This document shows positions 41,794 through 64,000 of a DNA stretch of 64,000 nucleotides, one piece after another. Every line of letters starts with the position of its first letter. The first letter of the stretch is position 1. A program made the position numbers and the translations under genes. Below the pieces are notes generated by a model. It searched no databases. It worked only from the letters and a program-made list of their open reading frames with translations, and was not told where the DNA came from. This DNA is from a virus (taxonomy: Duplodnaviria; Heunggongvirae; Uroviricota; Caudoviricetes), in the IMG/VR virus record IMGVR_UViG_2875697941_000001; one strand, given 5' to 3'.

Positions 41794-45474
<3,681 letters not shown>

Positions 45475-45500
<26 letters not shown>

Positions 45501-46965: not shown

Positions 46966-47259
46966 ATGAAAAAAATGTTGTTTTCTGCCGCTCTGGCAAT
47001 GCTTATTACAGGATGTGCTCAACAGACGTTTACTGTTGGAAACAAACCGACAGCAGTAACACCAAAGGAAACCATCACCCATCACTTCTTCGTTTCGGGA
47101 ATTGGACAGGAGAAAACTGTTGATGCAGCCAAAATTTGTGGCGGCGCAGAAAATGTTGTTAAAACAGAAACCCAGCAAACATTCGTAAATGGATTGCTCG
47201 GTTTTATTACTTTAGGCATTTATACTCCGCTGGAAGCGCGTGTGTATTGCTCACAATAA
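46966..47259 (+). CDS. bor: Bor lipoprotein (serum-resistance lysogenic conversion protein)
   Basis: 97 aa from MKKMLFSAALAMLITGCAQQTFTV; lipobox; transcribed opposite to late genes as in lambda. Confidence 0.9.
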   Translation: MKKMLFSAALAMLITGCAQQTFTVGNKPTAVTPKETITHHFFVSGIGQEKTVDAAKICGGAENVVKTETQQTFVNGLLGFITLGIYTPLEARVYCSQ

Positions 47260-47290
47260 TTGCATGAGTTGCCCATCGATATGGGCAGCT

Positions 47291-47752
47291 CTATCTGCAC
47301 TGCTCATTAATATACTTCTGGGTTCCTTCCAGTTGTTTTTGCATAGTGATCAGCCTCTCTCTGAGGGTGAAATAATCCCGTTCAGCGGTGTCTGCCAGTC
47401 GGGGGGAGGCTGCATTATCCACGCCGGAGGCGGTGGTGGCTTCACGCACTGACTGACAGACTGCTTTGATGTGCAACCGACGACGACCAGCGGCAACATC
47501 ATCACGCAGAGCATCATTTTCAGCTTTCGCATCAGCTAACTCCTTCGTGTATTTTGCATCGAGCGCAGCAACATCACGCTGACGCATCTGCATGTCAGTA
47601 ATTGCCGCGTTCGCCAGCTTCAGTTCTCTGGCATTTTTGTCGCGCTGGGCTTTGTAGGTAATGGCGTTATCACGGTAATGATTAACAGCCCATGACAGGC
47701 AGACGATGATGCAGATAACCAGAGCGGAGATAATCGCGGTTACTCTGTTCAT
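47291..47752 (-). CDS. Rz: i-spanin Rz
   Basis: 153 aa from [38 protein letters not shown] matches lambda Rz. Confidence 0.9.
47350..47532 (-). CDS. Rz1: o-spanin Rz1 (lipoprotein embedded in Rz, +1 frame)
   Basis: 60-aa [41 protein letters not shown] matches lambda Rz1. Confidence 0.9.
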
Positions 47753-48243
47753 TGCTGACCCCACAAACAGATTTCACGCTCAATCTCACGACGAGTCATG
47801 AGACCTTTCCATTGCTTACCGCCAGCATATGTCCAGCGACGTAGCTGATCACATGCGCCTTTGATATCGCCCTGGTTTATTTTGCGAAGAAGCGTCGATG
47901 TTCTGAAATTGCCAGCACCCACGTTGTAAACGAATGAGTAAAGAGCGCCGCGCGTTGTTTCCGGTATATCGACTTCGATGTACGGGTTAATTTGTCTGGC
48001 GACAGTGGCAAGGTCTTTATTCAAGAGTGCTTTGCATTCTGCTTTGGTATACGTTTTACCGAGCATGATGTCTTTTCCTGTATGCCCGTGACATACAGTC
48101 CATACACCAACAATATCTTTGTATGGTATGTAGCTGACACCTTCCAGACCATCGTTACCACTTGGGCCAGTGATTAACACTGATGCTATAGCAATTGCTC
48201 CGCCACCAATAGCAGCAACGGCTTTTCGTAATGATGGAGGCAT
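47749..48243 (-). CDS. R: SAR endolysin (lysozyme), phage 21 R-type
   Basis: 164-aa ORF with N-terminal Gly/Ala-rich signal-anchor-release segment and lysozyme catalytic region; overlaps Rz start. Confidence 0.85.
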
Positions 48244-48458
48244 TATTCACCTCTCGCAGCCTTGCGCTTATCTTCTTTAATCTTGAAATAAAGGTTTGTC
48301 AGGTACGTCAGCAGGCCAAATACCAGGCTACCCAGCACACCTATTGCTGCCCACTGTGAGGGCGTGACTTTATCGAGCAGCTGTAAAAACCAGTAACCGG
48401 CACTACCTGCTGAGGTGCCATAGGCGACACCCGTTGTTAACTTATCCATGGATTTCAT
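48243..48458 (-). CDS. S: pinholin S (phage 21 type), dual-start motif
   Basis: [26 protein letters not shown]; two TM segments; ORF-track start further upstream likely spurious. Confidence 0.8.
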
Positions 48459-49046
48459 AACCCCACCTCGCAGACAAAGCGGGTGTAAATTGAGGGAATA
48501 CAACGTATCGCAAAAAAGCAGAAACGTAACAGACTCGGAGTCAGTGAATAACTCAGGTATTGAGTTATCAGCTAATATCGAGACTCAAAAAATGGAAAAA
48601 CCAGCTCGACGGCGGGTTTAAGCTGTGTGACGAAGTAACCACTCTTAACAGCATAACCAATTTTTTACGTACGTAAACCACTGAATGATATTTATGAGAA
48701 TGCTACCGAGTGTTCAAAACACCACCACAAATACATAAGAAAACCTCAACAAATAACCAATAAATAATTTCAGACGTTATTTTTAGTTGATTTAAATTAA
48801 ACTGCTGAATTATAGAACCTCCATAAATAACAACCATTAATATAAATTAGCTAATAGGTTTATTTTTGTTCAAATAAGAGCCATAAATAGGTTTCGATAG
48901 AAAAAGTTCAGATAAAAATAGAGATCTACTTCACAAATTAAATGAGAAACTAAAACTTACATCTTGAAATAATCACATTGATTAGATGAATATTTATCGC
49001 GCAGTGACATCATTTTTTAATAATAGTTCAAAAAAAAGGGCTCACG

Positions 49047-50144
49047 ATGAAAAAATTAACAGTGGCAATTTCTGCTGTAGCTGCATCAGTACTGATGGCG
49101 ATGTCTGCTCAGGCAGCTGAAATTTATAATAAAGACAGTAACAAGCTGGATCTGTACGGGAAAGTTAATGCCAAGCACTACTTCTCCTCTAATGATGCAG
49201 ATGATGGTGATACTACTTATGCCCGTCTTGGCTTCAAAGGTGAAACCCAAATCAACGATCAACTGACTGGTTTCGGTCAGTGGGAATATGAATTCAAAGG
49301 CAACCGCGCTGAATCTCAAGGTTCCTCCAAAGACAAAACCCGTCTTGCATTTGCAGGCCTGAAATTCGGTGACTACGGCTCAATCGATTACGGCCGTAAC
49401 TACGGTGTAGCATACGACATCGGTGCGTGGACTGACGTTCTGCCAGAATTCGGTGGCGATACCTGGACCCAAACAGATGTGTTCATGACTGGTCGCACCA
49501 CTGGTGTTGCAACCTATCGTAACAACGACTTCTTTGGTCTGGTTGATGGTCTGAACTTTGCTGCTCAGTACCAAGGCAAAAACGATCGTAGCGATTTCGA
49601 TAACTACACTGAAGGTAACGGTGATGGCTTCGGTTTCTCTGCTACCTATGAATACGAAGGATTCGGTATCGGTGCAACTTATGCGAAATCTGATCGTACC
49701 GACACTCAAGTTAATGCAGGGAAAGTTCTTCCTGAAGTATTTGCTTCCGGTAAAAATGCAGAAGTTTGGGCCGCAGGTCTGAAATATGACGCTAACAACA
49801 TTTACCTGGCCACTACCTATTCTGAAACCCAGAATATGACTGTATTTGCTGATCACTTCGTTGCTAATAAAGCCCAAAACTTCGAAGCTGTTGCACAATA
49901 TCAGTTCGATTTCGGTCTGCGTCCGTCCGTTGCTTACCTGCAATCTAAAGGTAAGGATCTTGGAGTATGGGGCGATCAGGACTTAGTCAAATATGTTGAT
50001 GTAGGTGCAACCTATTACTTCAACAAAAATATGTCTACTTTCGTTGATTACAAAATCAACCTGCTTGACAAAAATGACTTCACTAAAGCACTCGGTGTAA
50101 GCACTGATGACATCGTTGCTGTAGGTCTGGTTTACCAGTTCTAA
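49047..50144 (+). CDS. nmpC: general porin, NmpC/OmpD/Lc-like (prophage moron)
   Basis: 365-aa ORF with signal peptide [23 protein letters not shown], porin beta-barrel hallmarks and C-terminal YQF; transcribed opposite to late genes between Q and S. Confidence 0.85.
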
Positions 50145-50282
50145 TCTGATTACGAAAAAGATATGTTGCGGGAGGCGTTGCCTCCCCAACATATAAGTGG
50201 CTCCCTCAAGCCACTTCCTTTAGAAGCACAACCTTGCTTCTAACTATATAAACCTTCTGTTATATATTACCCTTTATTTTTG

Positions 50283-50311
50283 GGGGCGTCTCAACGCCCC
50301 ATTTTTAATAA
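50283..50311 (+). terminator. rho-independent terminator between nmpC and Q
   Basis: GGGGCG-TCTCAA-CGCCCC followed by ATTTTTAAT. Confidence 0.45.
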
Positions 50312-50333
50312 CTTTTAGTAAATAATTGGCATA

Positions 50334-50732
50334 TTAATTAGAGTTATTAACAACGATATCCATCTCTAACCGGATATCTAATGCCATTAACATCCCTTCA
50401 ATTATGCCCTCAGCCTTCTGTAACCTTTTCCCGATATAACCATCAGAGCAGCAATGCTTACCTGCCAGTGACATGAATGTCATACCGACTACATAATAAT
50501 CTACTAATAAATCATGCAAATCGCTGTTGTTCTTTTTCAGACGGGCCATGCACCCGCAAATGATCATCGCGTCATCGTCACAACATTGTGGGCGAGATTT
50601 TACTTTTGAAGGAATTAATCCCTTAAAACCGGCGGCAATGGACGACCAGGTCACATCTTCATGATTATTAGCCGCCCACGCTCCCCAACGCTCAAGAACC
50701 ATCTGAATATCACGCATCAACTTACTCCACAA
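50334..50732 (-). CDS. Q: late antiterminator Q (phage 21 / DLP12 QuuD-like)
   Basis: about 130-aa ORF immediately upstream of lysis cassette; Cys-rich zinc-binding region. Confidence 0.7.
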
Positions 50733-50939
50733 AACTCAGACCAGAACGCCAATTACAAGCAAAAATCAACAAAACAGTATTAGTTGATTGTTATCTCTGA
50801 CTTCATACTCCTGCTCCTGTCAGTGTTTTGGCGTAATTCTTCAGTATTCGGTAATCGGTCAAAACAGAACCGGGGAAACGATATAAGCGCAGGCGCATCC
50901 AGCGGTGGCGAAGAAGTTCTGCCATATAAAACTCAAACA

Positions 50940-51302
50940 TCATTCATCTCCCTGTTCAGTGATGGTCAGTTCCAGCTTTCCACCTTTGACAACCGGCATC
51001 TTCACAACGCGGTAATCAACGACCTGAGCATCATCCAGCCAGAAACCTGCTTTGGTGAGTGCGTCAAAAGCGGCCTTTTGTAGATTATCCAGGTCACGGC
51101 GACGGCGATCCGGCATGTGACACTCAATGCGGATTTTCACAGGCATAGCCAGGCCGATATCCAGCATTGCGTTTTTAATGATTCGGGCGACGTTTTCGCG
51201 GTATGCCTGCCCCTCTGCGCTGATGTGCGTGCGCCCGCGATTATGGCGGTAATAGCGATTATTGCTCGGCGGCCAGGGTAATGTGATATTGTAGGTATTC
51301 AC
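50940..51302 (-). CDS. rusA: Holliday junction resolvase RusA
   Basis: 120-aa [38 protein letters not shown] matches RusA. Confidence 0.9.
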
Positions 51303-51508
51303 GCCTTAATAACCCCCTCTTTCAGCCAGATAAACTGTGTTCTCGCCATACCTTCCAGCGCGCATTCTTTTGCATATGCAGCATCGACTTGCTTGGCATG
51401 CCCTTTACCGGCAATCTTCTGTATGCGCTAAACCTAGATAGAATCCACTCTGTGCACATTGAAGCCCGCTCTATGCTTCCTTTCAGGTATTGAAGGGATT
51501 GAGATGGG

Positions 51509-51853
51509 CTAAGCATTATTGGCCTCCTGCATCAGGAGAAAGACAATCATGGCGGCGCGGAGAGGTCTGGTATCAAATATTGGGCTTACGCCTTTTGCAT
51601 CCACACACCATTCAGTTAACTGGTCTAAGATAGAAATCCTGTATTTCTCAATAATCGGCCATGAAGCGCTCGGATCATTGCAGTAGTCAGGCAAATGATT
51701 TAATGGCTCAAAAGTTGTATCAGCATTTCCGTAATACCATTTGTTGGTGTTATTCCCTGATGTTTCCGGTTTACTTGCCCAAAGGCCTTTAAAAATTATG
51801 TCTCCTACCATTCTGTTAATTTCAAAATCACTTAACTGTGAATAATCCATTGT
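51509..51853 (-). CDS. hypothetical nin-region protein
   Basis: about 114 aa from [17 protein letters not shown]; start overlaps ninE stop (ATGA). Confidence 0.45.
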
Positions 51854-52029
51854 CATTTCCTCGCACGATATCTTAGCCACCGGATATCCCACAGGTGAGC
51901 TGTGTAATTGAAGGTTTTTACGTCAGATTCTTTTGGGATTGGCTTGCGTTTATTTCTGGAGCGTTTCGTTGGAAGGTATTTGCAGTTTTCGCAGATGATG
52001 TCGGTGAAACTTCGTCGCTGTCGCCTCAT
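51853..52029 (-). CDS. ninE: NinE
   Basis: [53 protein letters not shown] matches lambda NinE. Confidence 0.8.
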
Positions 52030-52553
52030 GCCGCCCTCCTGACGCCCTGCCCGATCGCCATCAATGCCGCTTTGGATACGGTAGTAAACATCCGTCGAGG
52101 ACTGATGAACGGTCGCCAAATCAGCAGCATGGAGCCTTTGCTGTTTCCCTTCTTCTCCAGCCCTGTCGATGGTTCGATAAAATTAATCCGTCCATCAGTG
52201 ATAATGCGAACTTCGTCGACACTCTCCAGAGCCTTGCTGAACCATCCGACTGACATATCCTCTGGCACAAGCATAACTACCGTCTGTCGCTGTTGTATGC
52301 ACTGCTCAGCAGCTTTTTCCACCCACGGCCTGATATTGCTGTACGGTGGGTTATTCCAGATTGCACCGTGGCTTACCCACTCAGAATTGAGCGCGTCGTC
52401 GGCCTCAGTTAGCCAGTGAGCACACAGAGCATTTTTGTCGCTCGCTGCCGAATCCAGCCAGAATCCAAACTCAATATCCAGTGCATCAAAAAGCCAAAGC
52501 GGCGTTTGCCAGCAGTCCTTGTCGTGTGCTGGCGTATTTGATTTGATAGTCAT
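52026..52553 (-). CDS. orphan phage DNA N6-adenine methyltransferase (Dam-like)
   Basis: [15 protein letters not shown]...NPPY motifs; occupies lambda ninC-ninD position; ATGA overlap with ninB stop. Confidence 0.7.
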
Positions 52554-52990
52554 GCAGCCCGATCTCCCCATCTCGCTTTCCACTCCAGAGCCAGTCTCGC
52601 TTCGTCTGACCACTTAACGCCACGCTCTGTACCGAATGCCTGTATAAGCTCTAATAGCTCCGCAAATTCGCCTACACGCATCCTGCTGGTTGACTGGCCT
52701 ATTACCACAAAGCCATTCCCGGCAAGGTTAGGAACAACATCCTGCTGCTTTAATGCTGCGGTAAACACACACTTCCAGCTTTCTGCATCCAGCCAGCGAC
52801 CATGCCATTCAACCTGACGAGAGACGTCACCTAAGCAGGCCCATAGCTTCCTGTTTTGGTCTAAGCTGCGGTTGCGTTCCTGAATGGTTACTACGATTGG
52901 TTTGGTTGGGTCTGGAAGGATTTGCTGTACTGCGTGAATAGCGTTTTGCTGATGTGCTGGAGATCGAATTTCAAAGGTTAGTTTTTTCAT
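52550..52990 (-). CDS. ninB: NinB (Orf-family recombination mediator)
   Basis: 146 aa from MKKLTFEIRSPAHQQNAIHAVQQILPDPTKPIVVTIQE matches lambda NinB. Confidence 0.9.
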   Translation of the reverse strand: MKKLTFEIRSPAHQQNAIHAVQQILPDPTKPIVVTIQERNRSLDQNRKLWACLGDVSRQVEWHGRWLDAESWKCVFTAALKQQDVVPNLAGNGFVVIGQSTSRMRVGEFAELLELIQAFGTERGVKWSDEARLALEWKARWGDRAA

Positions 52991-53063
52991 GACTTCCCTC
53001 TCCCCCAAATAAAAAGGCCTGCGATTACCAGCAGGCCTGTTATTAGCTCAGTAATGTAGATGG

Positions 53064-53354
53064 TCATCTTTTAACTCCATATACCGCCAATACCCGTTTC
53101 ATCGCGGCACTCTGGCGACACTCCTTAAAAATCAGGTTCGTGCTCATCTTTCCTTCCCGTTCTTCCCTGGTAGCAAACCGGTAATACACCGTTCGCCAGA
53201 CCTTACCTTCGATAACCAGAAGACCTGCCCGTGCCATTTTAGCCGCGGCCTGATTTATGCTGGTTACTGTTGCGCCTGTTAGCGCGGCAACGTCCGGCGC
53301 ACAGAAGCTATTATGCGTCCCCAGGTAATGAATAATTGCCTCTTTGCCCTTCAT
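53064..53354 (-). CDS. ren: Ren
   Basis: 96-aa ORF directly downstream of P as in lambda. Confidence 0.75.
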   Translation of the reverse strand: MKGKEAIIHYLGTHNSFCAPDVAALTGATVTSINQAAAKMARAGLLVIEGKVWRTVYYRFATREEREGKMSTNLIFKECRQSAAMKRVLAVYGVKR

Positions 53355-54052
53355 ACACTTGCTCCTTTCAGTCCGAACTTAGCTTTAATTTCTGCGATCT
53401 TCGCCAGAGCCTGTGCACGATTTAGAGGTCTACCGCCCATAACAGGAAGTTGTTTTACTGGTTCAGGTATCGTCTCACCACGGTTAATTCGCGCTGTCAT
53501 ACAGGTCAGTTCATCGGCAGCCTTGCGCCGTAATTCCGCATCAGTAAGCGCATTGGCCCGCATGTTCTGATACAGGTTGGTAACCAGCCAGTAGTGCGCG
53601 TTTGATTTCCACGGATAAGACTCCGCATCCGGATACAGGCCTCGCTTCCGGCAATACTCGTAAACCATATCAACCAGCTCGCTGACGTTTGGCAGTCCGG
53701 CGATAACGGATGCTTCTTCCCGGCACCATGCAACAAACTGCCCGGGTGATGGCAGAAATGGTCGATTCTGCCGACGGGCTACGCGCATTCCTGCGTTAAC
53801 CTGTTCCATCGTGGTGATCCCGTTTTCCCGAAAAGCCAGAACCCACTGGCGACGGATTTCGTTCAGTTCGTTCTGGTCACGGTTAGCCAGACTCGCCGGG
53901 AAAGTTGCCAGTAACTGGCTGAACACACCGTTGATGATCTGCGCTACCTGCTGTACCTGCGGCTTTTCGTCGTACTGTTCCGGCATGTTGTTGGCGATCC
54001 GACGCATCTGCTCACGGTCAAAGTCAACCATCTGTGCGGCGATGTTTTTCAT
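53351..54052 (-). CDS. P: replication protein P (DnaB helicase loader)
   Basis: 233-aa ORF MKNIAAQMVDFDREQMRRIANNMPEQYDEKPQVQQ matches lambda P. Confidence 0.95.
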   Translation of the reverse strand: MKNIAAQMVDFDREQMRRIANNMPEQYDEKPQVQQVAQIINGVFSQLLATFPASLANRDQNELNEIRRQWVLAFRENGITTMEQVNAGMRVARRQNRPFLPSPGQFVAWCREEASVIAGLPNVSELVDMVYEYCRKRGLYPDAESYPWKSNAHYWLVTNLYQNMRANALTDAELRRKAADELTCMTARINRGETIPEPVKQLPVMGGRPLNRAQALAKIAEIKAKFGLKGASV

Positions 54053-54948
54053 AGATCCACCCCGTAAATCCAGTCTGTGTTTGTCAGGTCGAGTTTTGGT
54101 TTGCTGGCTGTCACGACTGCCTGTTGCTTGTTACGGTTGATTTCGAGCTGGGTCCACTTGTCGCGGAGTTTGGCCGGGCTAAGCACGTTACCGGACCAGA
54201 AGTTGTCCTGGCATGCCCAGCGGAACAGTACACACATGTCGCGATGGTTACGTCCGTCACGTTCACGCATCAGGCGGATATCGTTAGCCCACCCAGCAAA
54301 ATTCGGTTTTCTGGCTGATGGTGCGATAGTCTTCACCATGTCAAACATCCACTCTGCGGCGGTCAGGTCTTCTGCTGTCCCCCACTTGCTGCCGCTCTGA
54401 ATTGCAGCATCCGGTTTCACCACAGAAAGGTCGTTTTCTGGCTGGTCAGAGGATTCGCCAGAATTCTCTGACGAATAATCTTTTCTTTTTTCTTTTGTAA
54501 TAGTGTCTTTTGTGTCCCCCTGTTTTGAGGGATAGCAATCCCCCAATTTGAGGGATGTTTTATCCCTCGTTTTAGGGGATTTTCCCTCGTTTTGAGGGAT
54601 ACACCATTCTGAGATGTTTTTATTTGGTCCAAACATGCCGCCTTGCTGCTTGATAATATTCATTCTGACGAGTTCTAACTTGGCTTCATTGCACCGTTTG
54701 ACGGGTAACTTTGTAATCTCGCTAAGTTGAGAATCGGTGATTCTGTCCATTGGTTTATTCCACCCATAGGTTTTACGCAGAATGGCAAGCAGCACTTTAA
54801 ACTGTCGCTTGGTCAGATCTGCGCCCGAATAAGCCTCAAGCAGCATATTTGATAGTCTGGCGTAACCATCATCGAGATCTGCCACATTACGCTCCTGTCC
54901 GGCAAAGTTACCTCTGCCGAAGTTGAGTATTTTTGCTGTGTTTGTCAT
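54049..54948 (-). CDS. O: replication initiator O
   Basis: 299-aa ORF MTNTAKILNFGRGNFAGQERNVADLDDGYARLSNML matches lambda O; contains ori iterons. Confidence 0.95.
   Translation of the reverse strand: MTNTAKILNFGRGNFAGQERNVADLDDGYARLSNMLLEAYSGADLTKRQFKVLLAILRKTYGWNKPMDRITDSQLSEITKLPVKRCNEAKLELVRMNIIKQQGGMFGPNKNISEWCIPQNEGKSPKTRDKTSLKLGDCYPSKQGDTKDTITKEKRKDYSSENSGESSDQPENDLSVVKPDAAIQSGSKWGTAEDLTAAEWMFDMVKTIAPSARKPNFAGWANDIRLMRERDGRNHRDMCVLFRWACQDNFWSGNVLSPAKLRDKWTQLEINRNKQQAVVTASKPKLDLTNTDWIYGVDL
54470..54610. other. ori: ori lambda: four iterons (TCCCTCAAAACGAGGGA-type) plus adjacent AT-rich segment, inside O
   Basis: repeated CCCTCAAA...GGGA units and a T-rich tract at 54480..54510 read directly. 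Confidence 0.8.
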
Positions 54949-54980
54949 AATGACTCCTGTTGATAGATCCAGTAATGACC

Positions 54981-55277
54981 TCAGAACTCCATCTGGATTT
55001 GTTCAGAACGCTCGGTTGCCGCCGGGCGTTTTTTATTGGTGATTTCATCAAGCGCATACTTAAAAGCTCTGCTAATCGGACTGAGGTCTGATGCCATGCC
55101 AAAAGCACACAAGACCGAAGCTATAAACCTCCAGTCTGTTCTGCTTATCTTCGATTCATGACAGCCAATCATCTTTGCCAGACCGCGCTGAGTAAGCGTT
55201 GACAGGTTGATAAGTAAATCTGTTTCTGCGCGATCAACGTCGCGCTGTGATAGTTTGCTGTAATTTGTTTGTTCCAT
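54981..55277 (-). CDS. cII: CII-like transcriptional activator
   Basis: 98-aa ORF; C-terminus TNKKRPAATERSEQIQMEF matches lambda CII C-terminus; N-terminal part diverged. Confidence 0.75.
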   Translation of the reverse strand: MEQTNYSKLSQRDVDRAETDLLINLSTLTQRGLAKMIGCHESKISRTDWRFIASVLCAFGMASDLSPISRAFKYALDEITNKKRPAATERSEQIQMEF

Positions 55278-55418
55278 TTCTTAAGATTTCCAATAGTGAA
55301 TAGTTAGTTGAAAGGTATGCGTGGAAACGCATATGGCCTTAGTTGGTCAGATATCTTGGGGCTCGCTTTTCAGCGACGTAGGACGAATGTCCGTTGTTAC
55401 AAAGAGCGGCTCCGCTTA

Positions 55419-55634
55419 TTAAGCGGCTTTGTGCTCCGGCGGGAACACGTCATCAAGACTTACTTTTGCGCCTAACTTGTTTAGACACGCAACAAGAGCA
55501 CGGCATGTTTTAAGGTCTGGGAAGCGACGACCAGATTCCCAATGTCCGATAGCTCCCTGTGTGCATCCAACTGCCTTAGCAAGTGTTGTTTGAGAGATAT
55601 TCAGTGACTCTCGATATTTTCGTAGGTTGCTCAT
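55419..55634 (-). CDS. cro: Cro-like repressor (HTH), non-lambda immunity
   Basis: 71 aa from MSNLRKYRESLNISQTTLAKAVGCTQGAIGHWESGRR; GGAGG RBS; divergent from cI. Confidence 0.75.
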   Translation of the reverse strand: MSNLRKYRESLNISQTTLAKAVGCTQGAIGHWESGRRFPDLKTCRALVACLNKLGAKVSLDDVFPPEHKAA

Positions 55635-55745
55635 ATGCCCTCCATAGTAACCATGAAGAAAAAAATACAATATGTACTTTTTTAATGCAAGCAAAAATAC
55701 ACATTGTGCATGGATGGTTGCAATACAGAGCGTAATAATAAGGAC
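55635..55745. promoter_or_regulatory. OR region: divergent PR/PRM promoters and operators between cro and cI
   Basis: 111-bp intergenic region between divergent starts; repeated ATACA(A/C)ATGT-like half-sites. Confidence 0.5.
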
Positions 55746-56405
55746 ATGAAAATGAAATGGTATGAACTGGCTAGATCCAGAATGAAAGAGCTCGGCATAA
55801 CTCAAGAGAAGTTAGCCGAAGAGCTAGGTATGACGCAGGGTGGAATTGGACACTGGTTGCGCGGATCTCGTCATCCATCTCTTAGTGATATTGGTGTGGT
55901 GTTTAAATACCTTGGTATTGATAACATATCATTCAACCACGACGGGACATTTTCACCTGTTGGCGAATACTCATCGGCCCCAGTTAAAAAACAATATGAG
56001 TACCCTGTTTTTTCTCATGTTCAGGCTGGGATGTTCTCTCCAGAACTCAGAACCTTTACCAAAGGCGATGCGGAGAGATTGGTAAGCACAACCAAAAAAG
56101 CCAGTGACTCTGCATTCTGGCTTGAGGTTGAAGGTAACTCGATGACCGCCCCAACAGGTTCCAAACCTAGTTTTCCTGACGGGATGTTAATTCTGGTTGA
56201 CCCTGAGCAGGCTGTTGAGCCAGGTGATTTCTGCATAGCCAGACTTGGTGGTGATGAGTTTACCTTCAAGAAACTGATCAGGGATAGCGGTCAGGTGTTT
56301 CTACAGCCACTAAACCCGCAATATCCAATGATCCCATGCAATGAGAGTTGTTCCGTTGTGGGGAAAGTTATCGCCAGCCAGTGGCCAGAAGAGACGTTTG
56401 GGTAA
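55746..56405 (+). CDS. cI: CI repressor (HTH N-terminal domain, LexA/S24-like autocleavage C-terminal domain)
   Basis: 219 aa from [11 protein letters not shown]; C-terminal domain matches lambda CI; N-terminal DNA-binding domain differs from lambda. Confidence 0.85.
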
Positions 56406-56577
56406 TTTCTCTGTTTGTTTTTTAAGCTATCAATCTCTGGCTTGTGGATAAGTTGGAAGGTATTCGCTGCTAATGTATTGACATTTACAAAATATAGGTA
56501 TTTTGGGGTTGTCTAAAATTACCTATAGGGTAAACTTCACTTAAGCTCCTACATGAGAGCTTCTGAGGAGAGATAAA

Positions 56578-56874
56578 ATGAAAACCTTACGTTGCATGGC
56601 CTACCAGCAGAACGGCGTTTACGTAGCTGCATGTTTAGACCTGTCATTGGCAGCGCAAGCAGATACTATGAAAGAAGCTGTAAACAAACTGGATGAGCAG
56701 ATTAAAGATTTTTTCACTGAAGCGCTATCAGAGCCGGAATATGCAAAACAACTACTAAGTCGGAAAGCACCTTTATCTATGTGGCTTAAGTATTGGGTAA
56801 TTGCATTTCAGGTTTTTGTCAGAAAACGAGGTGAAGCAAAACTCTTTGCTGAGCCTTGTGATGCTCATGCTTAG
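56578..56874 (+). CDS. HicB-like (UPF0150/DUF1902-type) antitoxin candidate
   Basis: 98-aa ORF; VYVAACLDLSLAAQADTMKEAVNKLDEQI resembles the HicB-family core; at the lambda rexA position. Confidence 0.5.
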   Translation: MKTLRCMAYQQNGVYVAACLDLSLAAQADTMKEAVNKLDEQIKDFFTEALSEPEYAKQLLSRKAPLSMWLKYWVIAFQVFVRKRGEAKLFAEPCDAHA

Positions 56875-56885
56875 GGTTACATTAC

Positions 56886-57170
56886 ATGTTCTTGAAAAAG
56901 CTTACTCCTTTGAAATACGACGAGGTAATCAGGGGACTTAAGAAAATGGGGTTTGAAATGAAACCTAAAACAGGAACCTCTCACGAACAGTGGGTTCTCA
57001 AGAACAGTAAAGGAAAATGGGTGGTTACAGTTGATAAGCATCACGCCCCATTCTCCAGAGATTTAATAAAATCCATGGCTAAGCAAGCTGGACTGAAAGC
57101 TCGTCACTTTCATGCGTTATGCAGAGGTGACGCAACGCTTGAGGATATAGGATTCCAAATCATTAGCTAA
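56886..57170 (+). CDS. HicA/YcfA-like toxin candidate
   Basis: 94-aa ORF; GTSHEQWVLKNSKGKWVVTVDKHH...IKSMAKQAGL matches the HicA-type motif; 11 nt after the preceding gene. Confidence 0.5.
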   Translation: MFLKKLTPLKYDEVIRGLKKMGFEMKPKTGTSHEQWVLKNSKGKWVVTVDKHHAPFSRDLIKSMAKQAGLKARHFHALCRGDATLEDIGFQIIS

Positions 57171-57197
57171 AACCCGGCCTCAGCGCCGGGTTTTCTT
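57171..57197 (+). terminator. rho-independent terminator after the toxin-like gene
   Basis: AACCCGGC-CTCAG-CGCCGGGTT followed by TTCTTT. Confidence 0.55.
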
Positions 57198-57383
57198 TGC
57201 CTCACGCCCCCACCTAAAGACACATAACCAAATGTATTTATTGAAAAATAAATAGATACAACTCACTAAACCACGCAATTCTGATCTCTCCTTACATCGC
57301 CGAGGCAATACACCCACGCTAAAAAACAACACTATTAAATACAAAGTGTTATAAAAAATCACCCCATTTTAGAACAAATCGTA

Positions 57384-57412
57384 TTGACCAAATAAAGTAC
57401 ATATCGTACTAT
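57384..57412 (+). promoter_or_regulatory. PL-like promoter (TTGACC-17 bp-TACTAT) with overlapping near-palindrome AGTACATATCGTACT (OL candidate)
   Basis: sigma-70 hexamers with 17-bp spacer read directly, about 190 bp upstream of N. Confidence 0.5.
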
Positions 57413-57602
57413 TTAACCGTCAGCAGGACGCTGGAAGCCAAACGGAACAGACTGGCAGGCTCTTTAAACAACGTCGAACTCTCGACTACGTGGCTGAAAA
57501 GCCAGATCACCCAACCACATGAGCTGTGGGATGCAATGCCGAAGCAACCGTCTCAGGAGGAGCTTCGAGATTGCATCGCCAAAGTTTATTCGGGAGGAAT
57601 CT

Positions 57603-57875
57603 ATGTCCAGAAAAACAGAATTTAAAGGCACCGCAGCTTCTCGCCGTAGAGCTCGTCGCGCAAATCTGCAAAGTCAGAAGGCGATCAGCTCCGACAAGCT
57701 ACACAGGCCAACCCCTTCACGAGTGGTCTTGCAATGCAAGCGCAAACCAGCAATGAGAGCAGAAGTAATAACACTGACAACGCTGACCAGAAAATATGAA
57801 GGCTCAACTTGTCTTCCAAACGTAGCTCTTTACGCGGCAGGCTACCGGAAATCCAAACAACTGACAGCAAGATGA
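57603..57875 (+). CDS. N: N-type antiterminator with arginine-rich motif (P22 gp24-like C-terminus)
   Basis: 90 aa from MSRKTEFKGTAASRRRARRANLQSQK; C-terminus LPNVALYAAGYRKSKQLTAR. Confidence 0.7.
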   Translation: MSRKTEFKGTAASRRRARRANLQSQKAISSDKLHRPTPSRVVLQCKRKPAMRAEVITLTTLTRKYEGSTCLPNVALYAAGYRKSKQLTAR

Positions 57876-57933
57876 CTTGTGTTGGTCGCCAGAAAATGAA
57901 ATTAGGCAGCAAACCACTTATTTGAGGTGAGAT

Positions 57934-58020
57934 ATGGAAGAAGAATTTGAAGAGTTCGAAGATCATCCTCAGGATGTGATGGAACAATACCAGGACTATC
58001 CGTATGACTACGACTATTGA
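57934..58020 (+). CDS. 28-aa highly acidic micro-ORF
   Basis: MEEEFEEFEDHPQDVMEQYQDYPYDYDY with GAGGTGA RBS; below ORF-track size cutoff; position and length suggest lambda orf28, not verified. Confidence 0.35.
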   Translation: MEEEFEEFEDHPQDVMEQYQDYPYDYDY

Positions 58021-58159
58021 TAAGAATCAATGGTGTAGACAATACGAACGACGACAATGATTGCCAGAGAACTTGGTAAACAGAACTACAAGGCTGCCTG
58101 ATGGTGGCCTTTATTTTTGTCCGTAAATAATTTCATGCTTATTACAATCAAGGTGATAT

Positions 58160-58609
58160 ATGGAAGAACAAGCAAACAAGATTCTCGTAGAACTACTGCA
58201 AAAAGCCAGTAATGGAATAGACGCGGCTGTTTCATTTAGCCAGGCACAGATTCCTGATGTTGTTCATCAGTTGCTGCTATGGAATATGGTTGACAGTCTG
58301 ATTAAAACATTAATGGCCATTCTAACAATCCCACTGGTTTTCTGGTTTATGAAGAAGCAGTGCCAAAGAGTTGAGACAGGTAAAATCGGTGATGAAGGAT
58401 ATTCATGGGAGAAAGGAAATCCCAAATACAGGCCGACAATGGTTTGGGATAGCAAAGGTGATATTAATCTTCTTATCATGCCATTGGTTGGAGTTTTGAC
58501 TCTGTGGGGGATTTTTATTATTGGTGTAGTAACCAATATGACTTGGTTAAAAATTTGGCTGGCCCCAAAGCTTTACCTTATCGAATATGCAGCATCATTG
58601 GTTAAGTAA
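58160..58609 (+). CDS. small inner-membrane protein (two predicted TM helices), superinfection-exclusion candidate
   Basis: 149-aa ORF with hydrophobic segments LMAILTIPLVFWFM and LLIMPLVGVLTLWGIFIIGVV; AAGGTGA RBS; lies where lambda carries ral/sieB. Confidence 0.5.
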   Translation: MEEQANKILVELLQKASNGIDAAVSFSQAQIPDVVHQLLLWNMVDSLIKTLMAILTIPLVFWFMKKQCQRVETGKIGDEGYSWEKGNPKYRPTMVWDSKGDINLLIMPLVGVLTLWGIFIIGVVTNMTWLKIWLAPKLYLIEYAASLVK

Positions 58610-58611
58610 TT

Positions 58612-58640
58612 TCAGGCCGCATAGTCGGCCTTTATTTTTG
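58612..58640 (+). terminator. hairpin terminator
   Basis: AGGCCG-CATAGT-CGGCCT followed by TTATTTTTGG. Confidence 0.45.
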
Positions 58641-58804
58641 GCATAAACAACAGAATAAACACTGCACTGTGTATTCATTCCAACGAGTGAATACACGGAG
58701 CAATGTCGCTCGTAACTAAACAGGAGCCGACTTGTTCTGATTATTGGAAATCTTCTTTGCCCTCCAGTGTGAAGGCGATTTTTTATCTATGAGGATATGA
58801 ATAG

Positions 58805-59173
58805 ATGTCAAACATCAAAAAATACATCATTGATTACGACTGGAAAGCATCAATAGAAATTGAAATCGACCATGACGTAATGACAGAGGAAAAACTTCAC
58901 CAGATTAATAATTTCTGGTCAGACTCTGAATACCGACTCAATAAACACGGCTCTTTATTAAATGCTGTATTAATCATGCTGGCGCAACATGCTCTGCTTA
59001 TAGCAATTTCGAAAGACTTAAATGCATATGGTGTTGTTTGTGAGTTCGACTGGGATGATGGAAATGGTCAGGAAGGATGGCCTCCAATGGATGGTAGTGA
59101 AGGAATAAGAATTACCGATATCGATACATCAGGAATATTTGATTCAGATGATATGACTATCAAGGCCGCCTGA
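58805..59173 (+). CDS. hypothetical protein, lambda Ea10 position
   Basis: 122-aa ORF between the membrane protein and cIII. Confidence 0.5.
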   Translation: MSNIKKYIIDYDWKASIEIEIDHDVMTEEKLHQINNFWSDSEYRLNKHGSLLNAVLIMLAQHALLIAISKDLNAYGVVCEFDWDDGNGQEGWPPMDGSEGIRITDIDTSGIFDSDDMTIKAA

Positions 59174-59245
59174 GTGCGGTTTTACCGCATACCAATAACG
59201 CTTCACTCGAGGCGTTTTTCGTTATGTATAAATAAGGAGCACACC

Positions 59246-59410
59246 ATGCAATATGCCATTGCAGGGTGGCCTGTTGCTGGCTGCCCTTCCGAATCTTTAC
59301 TTGAACGAATCACCCGTAAATTACGTGACGGATGGAAACGCCTTATCGACATGCTTAATCAGCCAGGAGTCCCAAAGAATGGATCAAACACTTATGGCTA
59401 TCCAGACTAA
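59246..59410 (+). CDS. cIII: CIII (FtsH inhibitor)
   Basis: [54 protein letters not shown] matches lambda CIII. Confidence 0.95.
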   Translation: MQYAIAGWPVAGCPSESLLERITRKLRDGWKRLIDMLNQPGVPKNGSNTYGYPD

Positions 59411-59522
59411 ATTCACTATCGCCACTTTTATTGGCGATGAAAAGATGTTTCGTGAAGCCGTCGACGCTTATAAAAAATGGATATTAATACTGAAACTGAG
59501 ATCAAGCAAAAGCATTCACTAA
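59379..59522 (+). CDS. kil: Kil (FtsZ inhibitor)
   Basis: 47 aa [47 protein letters not shown]; overlaps cIII 3' end as in lambda. Confidence 0.85.
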
Positions 59523-59595
59523 CCCCTTTCCTGTTTTCCTAATCAGCCCGGCATTTCGCGGGCGATATTTTCACAGCTATTTCAGGAGTTCAGCC

Positions 59596-59892
59596 ATGAA
59601 CGCTTATTACATTCAGGATCGTCTTGAGGCTCAGAGCTGGGCGCGTCACTACCAGCAGATCGCCCGTGAAGAGAAAGAGGCAGAACTGGCAGACGACATG
59701 GAAAAAGGCCTGCCCCAGCACCTGTTTGAATCACTCTGCATCGATCATTTACAACGCCACGGGGCCAGTAAAAAAGCCATTACCCGTGCGTTTGATGACG
59801 ATGTTGAGTTTCAGGAGCGCATGGCAGAACACATCCGGTACATGGTTGAAACCATTGCTCACCACCAGGTTGATATTGATTCAGAGGTATAA
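59596..59892 (+). CDS. gam: Gam (RecBCD inhibitor)
   Basis: 98 aa [38 protein letters not shown] matches lambda GamS. Confidence 0.95.
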
Positions 59893-59897
59893 AACGG

Positions 59898-60683
59898 ATG
59901 AGTACAGCACTCGCAACGCTGGCTGGGAAGCTGGCTGAACGTGTCGGCATGGATTCTGTCGACCCACAGGAACTGATCACCACTCTTCGCCAGACGGCAT
60001 TTAAAGGTGATGCCAGCGATGCGCAGTTCATCGCATTGTTGATCGTCGCCAACCAGTACGGCCTTAATCCGTGGACGAAAGAAATTTACGCCTTCCCTGA
60101 CAAGCAGAACGGCATCGTTCCGGTGGTGGGCGTTGATGGCTGGTCCCGTATCATCAATGAAAACCAGCAATTTGATGGCATGGACTTTGAGCAGGACAAT
60201 GAATCATGTACATGCCGGATTTACCGCAAGGACCGTAATCATCCGATCTGCGTTACCGAGTGGATGGATGAATGCCGCCGCGAACCATTCAAAACTCGCG
60301 AAGGCAGAGAAATCACGGGGCCGTGGCAGTCGCATCCCAAACGGATGTTACGGCATAAAGCTATGATTCAGTGTGCCCGTCTCGCCTTCGGATTTGCTGG
60401 TATCTATGACAAGGATGAAGCCGAGCGCATTGTCGAAAATACCGCATACACTGCAGAACGTCAGCCGGAACGCGACATCACTCCGGTTAACGATGAAACC
60501 ATGCAGGAGATTAACACTCTGCTGATCGCCCTGGATAAAACATGGGATGACGACTTATTGCCGCTCTGTTCCCAGATATTTCGCCGCGACATTCGCGCAT
60601 CGTCAGAACTGACACAGGCCGAAGCAGTGAAAGCTCTTGGATTCCTGAAACAGAAAGCCACTGAGCAGAAGGTGGCAGCATGA
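59898..60683 (+). CDS. bet: Bet (Red-beta single-strand annealing protein)
   Basis: 261-aa [46 protein letters not shown] matches lambda Bet. Confidence 0.95.
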
Positions 60684-61360
60684 TACCGGACATTATCCTG
60701 CAGCGTACCGGGATCGACGTGAGAGCTGTCGAACAGGGGGATGATGCATGGCACAAATTACGGCTCGGCGTCATCACCGCTTCAGAAGTTCACAACGTGA
60801 TAGCAAAGCCCCGCTCAGGAAAGAAGTGGCCTGACATGAAAATGTCCTACTTCCACACCCTGCTGGCTGAGGTTTGCACCGGTGTGGCTCCGGAAGTTAA
60901 TGCTAAGGCGCTGGCCTGGGGAAAACAGTACGAGAACGACGCCAGAACCCTGTTTGAATTCACTTCCGGCGTGAATATTACTGAATCCCCGATCATCTAT
61001 CGCGACGAAAGTATGCGCACCGCCTGCTCTCCCGATGGTTTATGCAGTGACGGCAACGGCCTGGAACTGAAATGCCCGTTTACCTCCCGGGATTTCATGA
61101 AATTCCGGCTCGGTGGTTTCGAGGCAATAAAATCGGCTTACATGGCCCAGGTGCAGTACAGCATGTGGGTGACGCGAAAAGATGCCTGGTACTTTGCCAA
61201 CTATGACCCGCGTATGAAGCGTGAAGGCCTGCATTATGTCGTGGTTGAGCGGGATGAAAAGTACATGGCGAGTTTTGACGAGATGGTGCCGGAGTTCATC
61301 GAAAAAATGGACGAGGCACTGGCTGAAATTGGTTTTGTATTTGGGGAGCAATGGCGATGA
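60680..61360 (+). CDS. exo: Exo (Red-alpha 5'-3' exonuclease)
   Basis: 226-aa [43 protein letters not shown] matches lambda Exo. Confidence 0.95.
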
Positions 61361-61539
61361 AGCATCCTCACGATAATATCCGGGTAGGTGCGATCACTTT
61401 CGTCTACTCCGTTACAAAGCGAGGCTGGGTATTTCCCGGCCTTTCTGTTATCAGAAATCCCCTGAAAGCACAGCGGCTGGCTGAGGAGATAAATAATAAA
61501 CGGGGGGCTGTATGCACAAAGCATCTCCTGTTGAGTTAA
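61351..61539 (+). CDS. small hypothetical protein (lambda b2-side early region)
   Basis: 62-aa ORF overlapping exo stop. Confidence 0.4.
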
Positions 61540-61703
61540 GAACGTGTATCGAGATGGCACATAGCCTCGCTCAAATTGGAGTCAGGTTTGTGCCAATACC
61601 AGTAGAAACAGACGAAGAATTTCATACGTTAGCCGCATCCCTTTCACAAAAGCTGGAAATGATGGTGGCGAAAGCAGAAGCAGATGAGAGAGACCAGGTA
61701 TGA
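61512..61703 (+). CDS. small hypothetical protein
   Basis: 63-aa ORF; stop overlaps next ATG. Confidence 0.4.
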   Translation: MHKASPVELRTCIEMAHSLAQIGVRFVPIPVETDEEFHTLAASLSQKLEMMVAKAEADERDQV

Positions 61704-61783
61704 CAACCACTGAATGCATTTTTCTGGCAGCGGGCTTCATATTCTGTGTGCTTATGCTTGCCGACATGGGACTTGTTCAATGA
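61700..61783 (+). CDS. 27-aa hydrophobic micro-ORF, translationally coupled on both sides
   Basis: MTTTECIFLAAGFIFCVLMLADMGLVQ; ATGA overlaps at 61700..61703 and 61780..61783; below ORF-track cutoff. Confidence 0.3.
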   Translation: MTTTECIFLAAGFIFCVLMLADMGLVQ

Positions 61784-61995
61784 CACCTCAGCAAGAAAAC
61801 GCCCTTCGCAGCATTGCCCGTCAGGCTAACTCTGAAATCAAAAAAGCCAGACAGCAGTTTCCGGATAAAAACGTCGATGACATTTGCCGTAGCGTACTGA
61901 AGAAGCACCGCGAAACGGTAACGCTGATGGGATTCACACCGACTCATTTAAGTCTGGCGATCGGCATGTTAAACGGCGTCTTTAAGGAGCGATGA
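61780..61995 (+). CDS. small hypothetical protein
   Basis: 71 aa from MTPQQENALRSIARQANSEIKKARQQF. Confidence 0.4.
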   Translation: MTPQQENALRSIARQANSEIKKARQQFPDKNVDDICRSVLKKHRETVTLMGFTPTHLSLAIGMLNGVFKER

Positions 61996-62093
61996 ACATG
62001 AAAAGCAAAATCATCAGGGAGCTACAGGCTCCTTTTTTATTATTCGCATTCACCCTCAAGCGTATTAACCAACAATTCAGGGATTAATGAAAG

Positions 62094-62312
62094 ATGGCAG
62101 ACATAATTGATTCAGCATCAGAAATCGAAGAATTACAGCGCAATACAGCAATAAAAATGCGTCGTCTGAACTACCAGACTGTATCTGCCACTCATTGTTG
62201 TGAGTGTGGCGATCCGATAGATGAGCGAAGACGCCTGGCTGTTCAGGGTTGTCGGACTTGTGCAAGTTGCCAGGAGGAGATCGAACTTAAGAACAAACAA
62301 TGGGGACTGTGA
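62094..62312 (+). CDS. TraR/DksA-type C4 zinc-finger protein
   Basis: 72-aa ORF with CxxC...CxxC (CCECGDPIDERRRLAVQGCRTCASC). Confidence 0.6.
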   Translation: MADIIDSASEIEELQRNTAIKMRRLNYQTVSATHCCECGDPIDERRRLAVQGCRTCASCQEEIELKNKQWGL

Positions 62313-62359
62313 TGGCCTCAAAGCAGCAAATTTCAACATCGTCCAACTGAGGTGTAAAA

Positions 62360-62638
62360 ATGTTCAGAATCATTTTTCCTAACACCTGGTACGTCGACCA
62401 CCACGGTACTCCCTGCAAAATCCTGCGTTCTACCCACAACAAAGTTCACTACATCCGAAAAGGCAGAACATGTATCGCCAGCATGTTCCGCTTTAATCAT
62501 GACTTTGAACCTGTGAATAAAGCTGATGCAGATCGGATAGCAGAAGAGATCGAAACGGCAGAACACATTAAGAAGTTACGTGACATGCGTTCAAAAAGCA
62601 GAGGTAACCATGGAATCATACAGCCTCACACTCGATGA
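62360..62638 (+). CDS. hypothetical protein
   Basis: 92-aa ORF upstream of xis. Confidence 0.4.
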   Translation: MFRIIFPNTWYVDHHGTPCKILRSTHNKVHYIRKGRTCIASMFRFNHDFEPVNKADADRIAEEIETAEHIKKLRDMRSKSRGNHGIIQPHTR

Positions 62639-62981
62639 GGCCTGTCAGTTTCTTAAGATATCCAGACCAACCGCCACCAACTGGATACGAACAGGCCGCC
62701 TACAGGCAACACGTAAAGATCCAACCAAGCCAAAATCTCCTTACCTCACAACACGGCAAGCCTGCATTGCGGCGCTTCAGTCTCCGCTGCATACTGTCCA
62801 GGTGAGCGCGGGTGATGGCATAACAGAGGAAAGAAAATGTCACTCTTCCGCAGAAATGAAATATGGTATGCCTCGTATTCGCTCCCGGGCGGGAAACGAA
62901 TTAAGGAATCTCTTGGCACAAAGGACAAGCGGCAAGCTCAGGAGTTGCACGACAAGCGAAAAGCAGAACTCTGGCGAGTAG
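62610..62981 (+). CDS. xis: excisionase-like protein (AlpA/Xis-type HTH), frame extends about 145 nt into int
   Basis: [38 protein letters not shown]; immediately upstream of int; unusually long C-terminal extension. Confidence 0.55.
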
Positions 62982-64000
62982 AAAAGCTAGGGGATTTACC
63001 TGATGTCACTTTTGAAGAGGCCTGCCTAAGATGGCTTGAGGAAAAAGCTGATAAAAAATCTCTCGATTCAGATAAAAGCCGGATTGAGTTCTGGCTTGAA
63101 CATTTTGAGGGTATAAGGCTTAAAGATATCTCGGAGGCAAAGATTTACTCTGCTGTAAGCAGAATGCATAACAGAAAGACGAAAGAAATATGGAAACAGA
63201 AAGTTCAGGCCGCCATCAGGAAAGGTAAAGAACCGCCTGTTTATGAACCAAAGCCAGTATCAACTCAGACAAAGGCAAAGCATCTTGCCATGATAAAGGC
63301 CATTCTCCGTGCTGCAGAACGCGACTGGAAGTGGCTGGAAAAAGCGCCTGTCATCAAGATACCAGCGGTCAGAAACAAGCGAGTCAGATGGCTGGAAAAG
63401 GAGGAAGCAAAACGCCTTATTGATGAGTGCCCCGAACCACTGAAATCTGTCGTCAAGTTTGCGCTGGCAACTGGTCTGAGAAAGTCGAACATCATAAATC
63501 TGGAATGGCAACAAATCGACATGCAGCGACGAGTTGCCTGGGTGAATCCAGAAGAGAGCAAATCAAACCGCGCCATTGGTGTGGCGCTGAACGATACCGC
63601 CTGTAAAGTGTTGCGTGATCAAATAGGCAAGCATCACAAATGGGTGTTTGTACATACCAAGGCGGCTAAGCGAGCAGATGGAACATCAACGCCTGCGGTC
63701 AGGAAGATGCGCATCGACAGCAAGACATCATGGCTATCAGCTTGTCGTCGTGCAGGAATTGAAGATTTCCGTTTCCATGACCTCAGACACACCTGGGCAA
63801 GCTGGCTGATTCAGTCAGGCGTCCCATTATCAGTGCTTCAGGAAATGGGCGGATGGGAGTCCATAGAAATGGTTCGTAGGTATGCTCACCTTGCGCCTAA
63901 TCATTTGACAGAGCATGCGAGGAAAATAGACGACATTTTTGGTGATAATGTCCCAAATATGTCCCACTCTGGAATTATGGAGGATATAAAGAAGGCGTAA
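62837..64000 (+). CDS. int: tyrosine integrase (lambdoid, DLP12 IntD-like)
   Basis: 387-aa [50 protein letters not shown]; C-terminal [10 protein letters not shown]...RYAHL catalytic motifs; stop at window end. Confidence 0.9.

Follow-up and report, generated by a model that had tools for sequence, protein, structure and literature searches.

The interval between the repressor gene cI and the antiterminator gene N of a lambdoid prophage was found to harbor a cassette of two genes, hicB and hicA, which are assigned here, from profile, fold and context data, to a toxin-antitoxin pair with the antitoxin gene first. The DNA concerned, referred to as the window, is a stretch of 64,000 nucleotides from a virus of the Caudoviricetes (IMG/VR record IMGVR_UViG_2875697941_000001). 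An earlier sequence-only reading of it had noticed two open reading frames (ORFs) immediately downstream of cI and co-oriented with it (56578..56874 and 56886..57170, separated by 11 nt), had compared their products with HicB and HicA, and had located them, together with a following terminator, at the position occupied by rexA-rexB in phage lambda. Coordinates, spacing, position and terminator were all recovered in the present analysis. Jointly, the toxin-antitoxin identity, the cassette nature and the general mechanism proposed below are regarded as quite probable; this judgement is confined to those three points, any particular biological role being graded separately.

Identity of the two proteins

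The HicA-like nature of the second ORF was borne out by profile search. Its product scored 42.3 bits (E 8.4e-11) against the Pfam family PF07927 (HicA_toxin), for which the gathering score is 27, with residues 12-70 aligned to positions 2-58 of the 58-position profile; it also matched phrog_353 ('toxin', 2.5e-18) and is named 'type II toxin-antitoxin system HicA family toxin' by the Prokaryotic Genome Annotation Pipeline (PGAP). No NCBIfam model was matched. A histidine, His33 (in GTSHEQW), was invariant in an alignment of 27 HicA homologues and stood in register with the His of TTHA1913 (1whz), a HicA-like structure from T. thermophilus. The histidines assigned to catalysis or toxicity in characterized HicAs are His23, His24, His28 and His36 (PMC11594946), and His33 is the putative catalytic residue of the protein described here. 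On this sequence evidence the second ORF is a HicA-family toxin, predicted to act as a ribosome-independent RNase.

The HicA domain covers approximately residues 8-80. Its AlphaFold2 model, with a predicted local distance difference test (pLDDT) score of 80, displayed an alpha-beta-beta-beta-alpha order compatible with the double-stranded RNA-binding domain (dsRBD)-like fold of HicA: helices were located at residues 11-21 and 58-67, strands at 33-40 and 43-50, and an extra short helix at 72-80, a further strand at 24-25 comprising two residues and falling under the three-residue cut-off for listing. The last 14 residues were variable among homologues and of low confidence in the model, and an extra domain in this tail, comparable to those of Gerdes Class 6 or 8, was rejected on these grounds. 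The Shine-Dalgarno sequence of hicA is weak (AGGG), which is consistent with an excess of antitoxin.

For the first ORF, the proposed likeness to HicB held at the level of fold but not at that of sequence-model thresholds. Its three best Foldseek matches were HicB-like, and 77 of its 98 residues aligned to the HicB N-terminal domain, a partial RNase H/dsRBD-like fold. A profile search against the PDB returned only TTHA1013 and TTHA1756, at E 0.8-1.2; PGAP nevertheless names the product 'DUF1902 domain-containing protein'. No helix-turn-helix (HTH) or ribbon-helix-helix (RHH) match was found in Pfam and, since the N-terminal domain fold accounts for those 77 residues, this HicB is devoid of a DNA-binding domain; according to its model, the ORF is the HicB N-terminal domain alone. 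Between the alpha-helix and last strand of this domain a helical segment (residues 53-81) is inserted, as in the N-terminal domain of B. pseudomallei HicB; the hydrophobic helix 66-81 belongs to the fold and is not a membrane segment. The gene is preceded by a Shine-Dalgarno sequence, GAGGAG, at 56565-56570, 7 nt 5' of the ATG.

A cargo slot between cI and the terminator

The cassette measures 765 bp (56406..57170) and extends from the cI stop codon to the terminator. Its limits were set by comparison with sibling prophages of O157 strain 472 and CFT073, whose cro/cI regions are 96-98% identical to that of the window: homology ended at 56405 and 56403, respectively, and returned at 57171 and 57168, at the terminator. 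In strain N39 (cro/cI 94% identical) the slot contains no cargo gene, and in lambda, whose cI matches the window cI only over the C-terminal half (93%), it holds rexAB. The gene order of the window is cro, cI, the pair, the terminator, the left operator and promoter (OL/PL) and N, in the leftward direction of lambda; the lambda counterpart reads cro, cI, rexA-rexB, timm, OL-PL and N. The two layouts match, and the pair therefore occupies the rexAB position.

The terminator itself was found by RNA folding, a simple pattern scan having missed it. It consists of a GC-rich hairpin with a 10-bp stem and a T-tract (57169..57194, -16.3 kcal/mol for the centroid structure), and it begins within the hicA stop codon. 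The terminator/OL segment (about 57167-57250) was 92-96% identical in 104 phage records, among which mEp332 carries the annotation 'terminator', so that, judged from these alignments, a terminator at this place is common to many lambdoid phages.

The cassette has been combined with very different repressor genes. A 787-bp hicBA module, 100% identical, was located directly behind four cI alleles with a mutual identity of 22-67%; between two of the loci compared (L019 and L020) it was the longest shared segment and no other one spanned the interval from cI to N, the remaining pieces in common being 55-370 bp long. Two further hicBA alleles (75-77% DNA identity) were found behind other cI genes, the one of 77% being the third allele and following yet another cI, and in Pseudomonas phage Medea1 a pair 39-55% identical directly follows cI. 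By these comparisons, hicBA is a mobile, moron-type cassette which is repeatedly, but not exclusively, inserted behind repressor genes. In lambdoid prophages, the stretch between cI and the terminator acts as a plug-in slot, the junctions of which are exactly documented here, and its cargos (rexAB and those of strain 472 and CFT073 described next) make it a reasonable place to seek uncharacterized exclusion genes.

The slot of strain 472 (L016:1808-2329; cro/cI 98% identical) contains about 500 nt of unannotated DNA followed by a single ORF of 173 aa without Pfam or PADLOC match; this orphan is a candidate for a function linked to the repressor. That of CFT073 (NC_004431.1, L017:1353-2659; cro/cI 96% identical) contains a 185-aa DUF6978-like protein and a 250-aa DUF1828 protein, which matched the A and B components of PDC-M24 (E 4.8e-4 and 4.7e-10), listed by PADLOC as a candidate defense system; no mention of PDC-M24 was found in the literature searched. 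In the Medea1 record (MW862109.1, L003:4629-5192), GenBank has a 187-aa hypothetical protein on the minus strand opposite hicB-hicA, which were recognized by hmmsearch on the plus strand (E 1e-29 and 1e-35); the deposited annotation is probably on the wrong strand. Two other cassettes abut the 3' end of a repressor gene convergently: an S24-family repressor-like gene lies 3' of hicA on the opposite strand, 44 nt away in Stenotrophomonas sp. (L041:5331-6408) and 417 nt away in a Moraxellaceae metagenome-assembled genome (L052:5267-6801).

Conservation and distribution

Dozens of full-length homologues were found for each protein, in Enterobacterales, Pasteurellaceae, Neisseria, Xanthomonadaceae and Methylococcales. 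The hicA gene was located directly 3' of hicB on the same strand in 33 of the 39 species-representative loci, and also in all 15 other related loci examined (by hmmsearch in L002-L004, L008, L012 and L019-L023 and by contig annotation in L005-L007, L009-L011 and L013-L015, as listed). When hicB and hicA were compared with diverged alleles, non-synonymous divergence amounted to 0.08-0.25 per site and synonymous divergence was saturated (0.73-0.93), values indicative of strong purifying selection on both genes. Given the number of full-length homologues and this selection, the two ORFs are not chance ORFs; the conserved adjacency, together with purifying selection, suggests that they are functionally coupled.

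At the level of E. coli the pair is rare. It was present in 20 of 5,426 complete genomes (RefSeq), all copies being at least 99.7% identical and all chromosomal. Near-identical DNA was not found in sequenced phage genomes, with which only the terminator/OL segment was in common. A HicA 97.9% identical to that of the window is encoded by a 362-kb non-mobilizable plasmid of Enterobacter hormaechei (NZ_CP056156.1, 269397-269678), which may be a phage-plasmid or carry an integrated prophage, and two further HicA-bearing records are of Pseudomonas plasmids or phage-plasmids. A second recurrent moron position was observed in tail modules of Klebsiella and relatives (L004-L007) and of Arsenophonus (L012-L015), where a co-oriented hicBA follows the tail assembly genes, shortly 5' of the tape-measure gene.

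Leader and transcription

The 172 nt between cI and hicB belong to the cassette, since sibling-prophage homology stops at 56405. Alleles with saturated synonymous sites had 69% identity in this leader, and its motifs were kept in loci L019-L023. The conserved elements are a TTGAC(A/T) hexamer (TTGACA at 56478-56483), a TTGnnn-16 nt-TA(A/C)ACT arrangement (TTGTCT at 56509-56514, 16 nt, TAAACT at 56531-56536) and the GAGGAG Shine-Dalgarno sequence. A hairpin or palindrome with a 5-bp stem, AGCTC-N8-GAGCT, was located at 56544-56561 and displayed one compensatory change, from A:T to G:C, between alleles. From these motifs a weak private promoter can be put forward as a candidate. An inverted repeat at 56493-56527 was considered as a conserved operator and rejected, being specific to the window and not kept in the L019 or L023 alleles.

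Outside the lambdoid cI-linked alleles the leader was not conserved, the upstream DNA of the Klebsiella, Atlantibacter, Arsenophonus and Photorhabdus copies being unrelated. The Photorhabdus copies (L024, L025, L028 and L029) have a conserved leader of their own about 60 nt 5' of hicB, with a palindrome-like ATAC(G/A)GTCTGTAT after a TTTGCTTA(G/A) motif, which could be an operator for some regulator.

No terminator-like site was detected in 56406-56577. Owing to this lack of a terminator between cI and hicB, and to the shared terminator after hicA, read-through from the cI promoters into hicB and hicA is to be expected in the lysogen.

Proposed mechanism and biological role

The following mechanism can be proposed. 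The HicB N-terminal domain would neutralize HicA, presumably by binding over its active site and masking His33; in solved HicAB complexes the catalytic His is masked by HicB (PMC11594946). Having no DNA-binding domain, HicB would not repress its own promoter and, since it could not autoregulate, its supply would be tied to the cI transcript and perhaps to the leader promoter. In a lysogen, transcription would thus come from outside the pair, through read-through of the cI transcript, with a weak promoter in the cassette's own conserved leader as a second likely source. If the supply of HicB stopped, as could follow from a shut-off of transcription by an invading phage or from loss or replacement of the prophage or of its immunity region, free HicA would cleave mRNA and arrest the cell. 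The same mechanism has two possible pay-offs, exclusion and addiction. Should the pair be functional, the regulation of a Class 2 hicBA system (as defined by Gerdes, see below), whose antitoxin is without a DNA-binding domain, would be outsourced to the prophage switch, and the cassette would offer a compact and tractable test of whether any HicA toxin defends against phage.

Several results weigh against this reading, some of which concern the identity of the proteins. HicB stayed under threshold with Pfam DUF1902 (E 0.01, 16.4 bits against a cut-off of 22) and with PHD_like (14 bits against 27), and matched no NCBIfam or PADLOC model; for both proteins the lack of matches in these two collections is uninformative and does not count against the assignment, generic toxin-antitoxin pairs being without models there. 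A Foldseek search of the HicA model against the PDB returned no HicA structure among the matches and nothing significant, a failure attributed to the small size of the domain; the identity of HicA is based on the Pfam match and on the alignment of its histidine. Toxicity, RNase activity and neutralization are predictions from the sequences and modelled structures, no promoter of the leader exceeded the consensus-scan threshold, and we infer co-transcription of the pair with cI. Moreover, the family was also found at a non-phage chromosomal site (Atlantibacter) and in prophage tail modules, so that the cI slot is not required for its function.

Four explanations of the biological role were considered. 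We tentatively put first, at less than even confidence, selection for a rex-like abortive infection or superinfection exclusion, in which HicBA would be expressed together with cI in lysogens and HicA would be released once an infecting phage blocked host or prophage transcription or degraded HicB, so that the cell would stop before the cycle of the invader is complete. The slot pleads for this explanation, as it is occupied by rexAB in lambda and by BstA in BTP1-like phages and is a recognized 'hotspot of mosaic diversity' (Owen et al.); one of the other cargos found downstream of the same cI corresponds to the PADLOC candidate PDC-M24, a defense role of HicA has been argued from genomic context by Gerdes (PMC10865869), and repeated capture of the cassette at this place was seen in Pseudomonas phage Medea1 and with six dissimilar cI alleles of enterobacterial origin. 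However, reviews report no experimental evidence of HicAB-mediated phage defense, the P. putida prophage pair HicAB2 and Adephagia gp90/gp91 gave no protection against the phages tried, neither protein matched PADLOC models (E up to 1), and many family members reside outside prophage immunity regions. Addiction, or stabilization, is a possibility to be taken seriously, though it too falls short of being probable. In this case, HicBA would kill or arrest cells that lose the prophage or have its immunity region exchanged by recombination with a heteroimmune phage, and would thereby keep the cassette and the cI allele linked to it. The direct precedent is paaA2-parE2, an addictive pair behind the cI-like PaaR2, for which a role in restricting immunity-region rearrangement was proposed (PMC8630535). 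Conserved sequence prone to recombination lies on both sides of the slot, and the shuffling of cargo and of cI alleles is demonstrable; yet the occurrence of the same cassette behind different cI genes, and of the same cI with different cargo, indicates that replacement was not prevented, HicAB2 had no effect on the stability of the P. putida prophage, and a single-copy chromosomal prophage is rarely lost.

It is also conceivable, although unlikely, that the cassette is a selfish passenger, a mobile hitchhiker in a permissive, recombination-prone and non-essential slot that brings no measurable benefit. Its rarity and near-identity among E. coli genomes, the presence of the family at places unrelated to this one, among them tail modules and intergenic sites of chromosomes, and the lack of phenotype of many toxin-antitoxin deletions (PMC8630535) would agree with this. 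The strong purifying selection, which over a long divergence has acted on the leader as well as on both genes, would not, nor would the independent placement right behind repressors in elements of Escherichia type and in those of Pseudomonas, Stenotrophomonas and Moraxellaceae. Participation in the lytic programme is very improbable. Here the cI transcript would stop after cI cleavage, HicB would decay, and HicA would degrade host mRNA in favor of phage gene expression or so as to time lysis. HicB supply would be coupled to lysogeny if it depended on the cI transcript, and lytic growth of Adephagia is impaired when its HicB-like gene is lost, the toxin being active in lytic development unless neutralized. 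Against it stand the cassette's own promoter-like leader, which would sustain HicB after induction, the sibling prophages, which have the same switch and do without the cassette, and the lack of any known selectivity of HicA for host over phage mRNA. As for exclusion, its fully specified form, in which cI-linked hicBA is a rex-like exclusion module with HicB supplied by the repressor transcript plus a weak private promoter, is doubtful. If it were true, a defense against phage would have been shown for a HicA RNase for the first time, with a toxin armed whenever an invader stops lysogen transcription, and selection for this wiring would be the reason why the same 0.77-0.79 kb module was repeatedly captured by enterobacterial and Pseudomonas phages behind repressors that are unrelated.

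Prophage setting

Features of the immunity region are collected in Table 1. The repressor also matched phrog_4 (repressor, 9e-61), and its start codon is uncertain, being located at 55710 (PGAP) or at 55746. Positions 35400..64000 of the window are 100% identical to E. coli MB49, in which the element is a complete-looking lambdoid prophage beside a tRNA-Arg gene, with an intD-type integrase; the host element of hicBA is a complete lambdoid prophage at the argU/DLP12 site.

Table 1. Coordinates of the hicBA cassette and of its flanking features in the window
Feature	Coordinates	Strand	Basis or remarks
cro-like HTH regulator, divergent from cI	55419..55634	-	Pfam HTH_3 4.2e-12; RefSeq: HTH regulator
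Right operator (OR)-like sequence	55660..55683		Inverted repeat, 24 nt, 83% complementary to the OL copy at 57391-57414
cI-type repressor (HTH and S24 autopeptidase)	55710..56405	+	Pfam Peptidase_S24 1.1e-28, HTH_3 1.9e-10
Cassette leader	56406..56577	+	Candidate promoters, hairpin/palindrome, Shine-Dalgarno sequence
hicB	56578..56874	+	98 aa, ATG start, modelled as HicB N-terminal domain only
hicA	56886..57170	+	94 aa, ATG start, HicA-family toxin, predicted RNase
Intrinsic terminator of the immunity-region transcript	57169..57199	+	10-bp stem, 6-nt loop, T-tract; RNA fold
PL-like promoter overlapping the OL operator copy	57384..57414	+	Promoter scan TTGACC-17-TACTAT at 57384-57412; operator repeat
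N antiterminator gene, far side of the slot	57603..57875	+	Pfam N_peptide 5.5e-32

Other cargo was observed elsewhere in the prophage. The moron iss, coding for a bor-like serum-survival lipoprotein, and a 365-aa porin gene are located on the plus strand at 46966-47259 and 49047-50144, the latter between Q and the lysis genes; both are morons of the lysogenic-conversion type. The early-left region, which is the place of sieB-type exclusion genes in other lambdoid phages, contains a 149-aa ORF between N/ral and cIII (58160-58609, plus strand). It matched phrog_3054 (unknown function, 4e-64) and no Pfam family, and its two strongly hydrophobic segments (about residues 43-65 and 100-130) suggest that it may be a small membrane protein.

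On the same strand, a 16-nt inverted repeat (88% complementary, 16-nt spacer) was located at 57530-57577 in the N leader, just 5' of the N start; we take it to resemble the processing hairpin of the lambda N leader. A frameshifted hypothetical ORF annotated by PGAP (57403-57625, plus strand) overlaps the PL-to-N leader, and a 19-codon remnant of the antirestriction gene ral (58042-58101, plus strand) was also annotated by PGAP. These last features suggest minor decay of the early-left operon in an otherwise complete-looking prophage.

Comparison with known systems

The cI-N hotspot, this class of toxin-antitoxin systems and the architecture with a toxin-antitoxin pair behind cI have all been published, and RefSeq names both genes; no paper describing a hicBA pair in the cI-N slot was found in the literature. 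The present pair is of value mainly as a tractable test case and because it illustrates cleanly how cargo modules are exchanged at the cI-terminator junctions.

The pair is a Class 2 hicBA in the sense of Gerdes, the commonest bicistronic arrangement of HicA and one not yet analyzed experimentally (PMC10865869). It shares with this class a hicB gene that comes first, comprises 63-103 codons (98 here) and codes for no DNA-binding domain, and a close linkage of the two genes (11 nt); it differs by a HicA of 94 aa instead of the typical 60-85, owing to the variable 14-residue C-terminal tail. The sequence-only reading had stressed that the order is reversed with respect to canonical hicAB. The reversal is real, but the order is typical of Class 2 and, as this is the commonest context of HicA, not remarkable.

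Canonical hicAB systems (E. coli K-12, Y. pestis HicA3B3 and B. pseudomallei; Gerdes Classes 3/4) have the same toxin family and the same antitoxin N-terminal fold. Their gene order is the opposite, and the HicB described here differs in lacking a C-terminal HTH or RHH domain, and hence autoregulation; in sequence, HicA was closest to T. thermophilus TTHA1913 and not to the E. coli or Yersinia proteins. Assignment to Class 3/4 was rejected on the basis of the hicB-hicA order and of the lack of HTH or RHH matches in Pfam. Adephagia gp90/gp91 and HicAB2 of P. putida prophage P1 are prophage-borne HicAB-type pairs which have been shown to be functional toxin-antitoxin systems, and in Adephagia lysogens the HicB-like gene is expressed. 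Neither is closely related in sequence to the present pair, however, and a location in the cI-downstream slot has not been reported for them.

With rexA-rexB of lambda the pair has in common the slot, the orientation and the status of non-essential cargo, and both are flanked by C-terminal cI sequence and by the terminator. There is no sequence or fold relationship between them: no RexAB homology or PADLOC defense model was matched by either protein (E up to 1), and a sensor with a membrane effector is to be compared with a predicted RNase and its protein inhibitor.

A direct parallel in architecture is paaR2-paaA2-parE2 of the cryptic lambdoid prophage CP-933P of E. coli O157:H7, in which an antitoxin also devoid of a DNA-binding domain lies, with its toxin, directly 3' of and co-oriented with the repressor at the cI position of the immunity region (PMC8630535). 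Its transcription is governed by the phage switch and not by the antitoxin, and it is experimentally addictive (PMC8630535). The toxins differ, ParE being a gyrase poison and HicA belonging to an RNase family, and PaaA2 is unrelated to HicB. PaaR2 is without the S24 autopeptidase domain present in the repressor of the window, where, in addition, a stretch of 172 nt holding promoter-like elements comes between cI and the pair and co-transcription is a prediction. In position, in orientation and in the lack of an intervening terminator, the hicBA pair nevertheless fits an operon of the paaR2 type.

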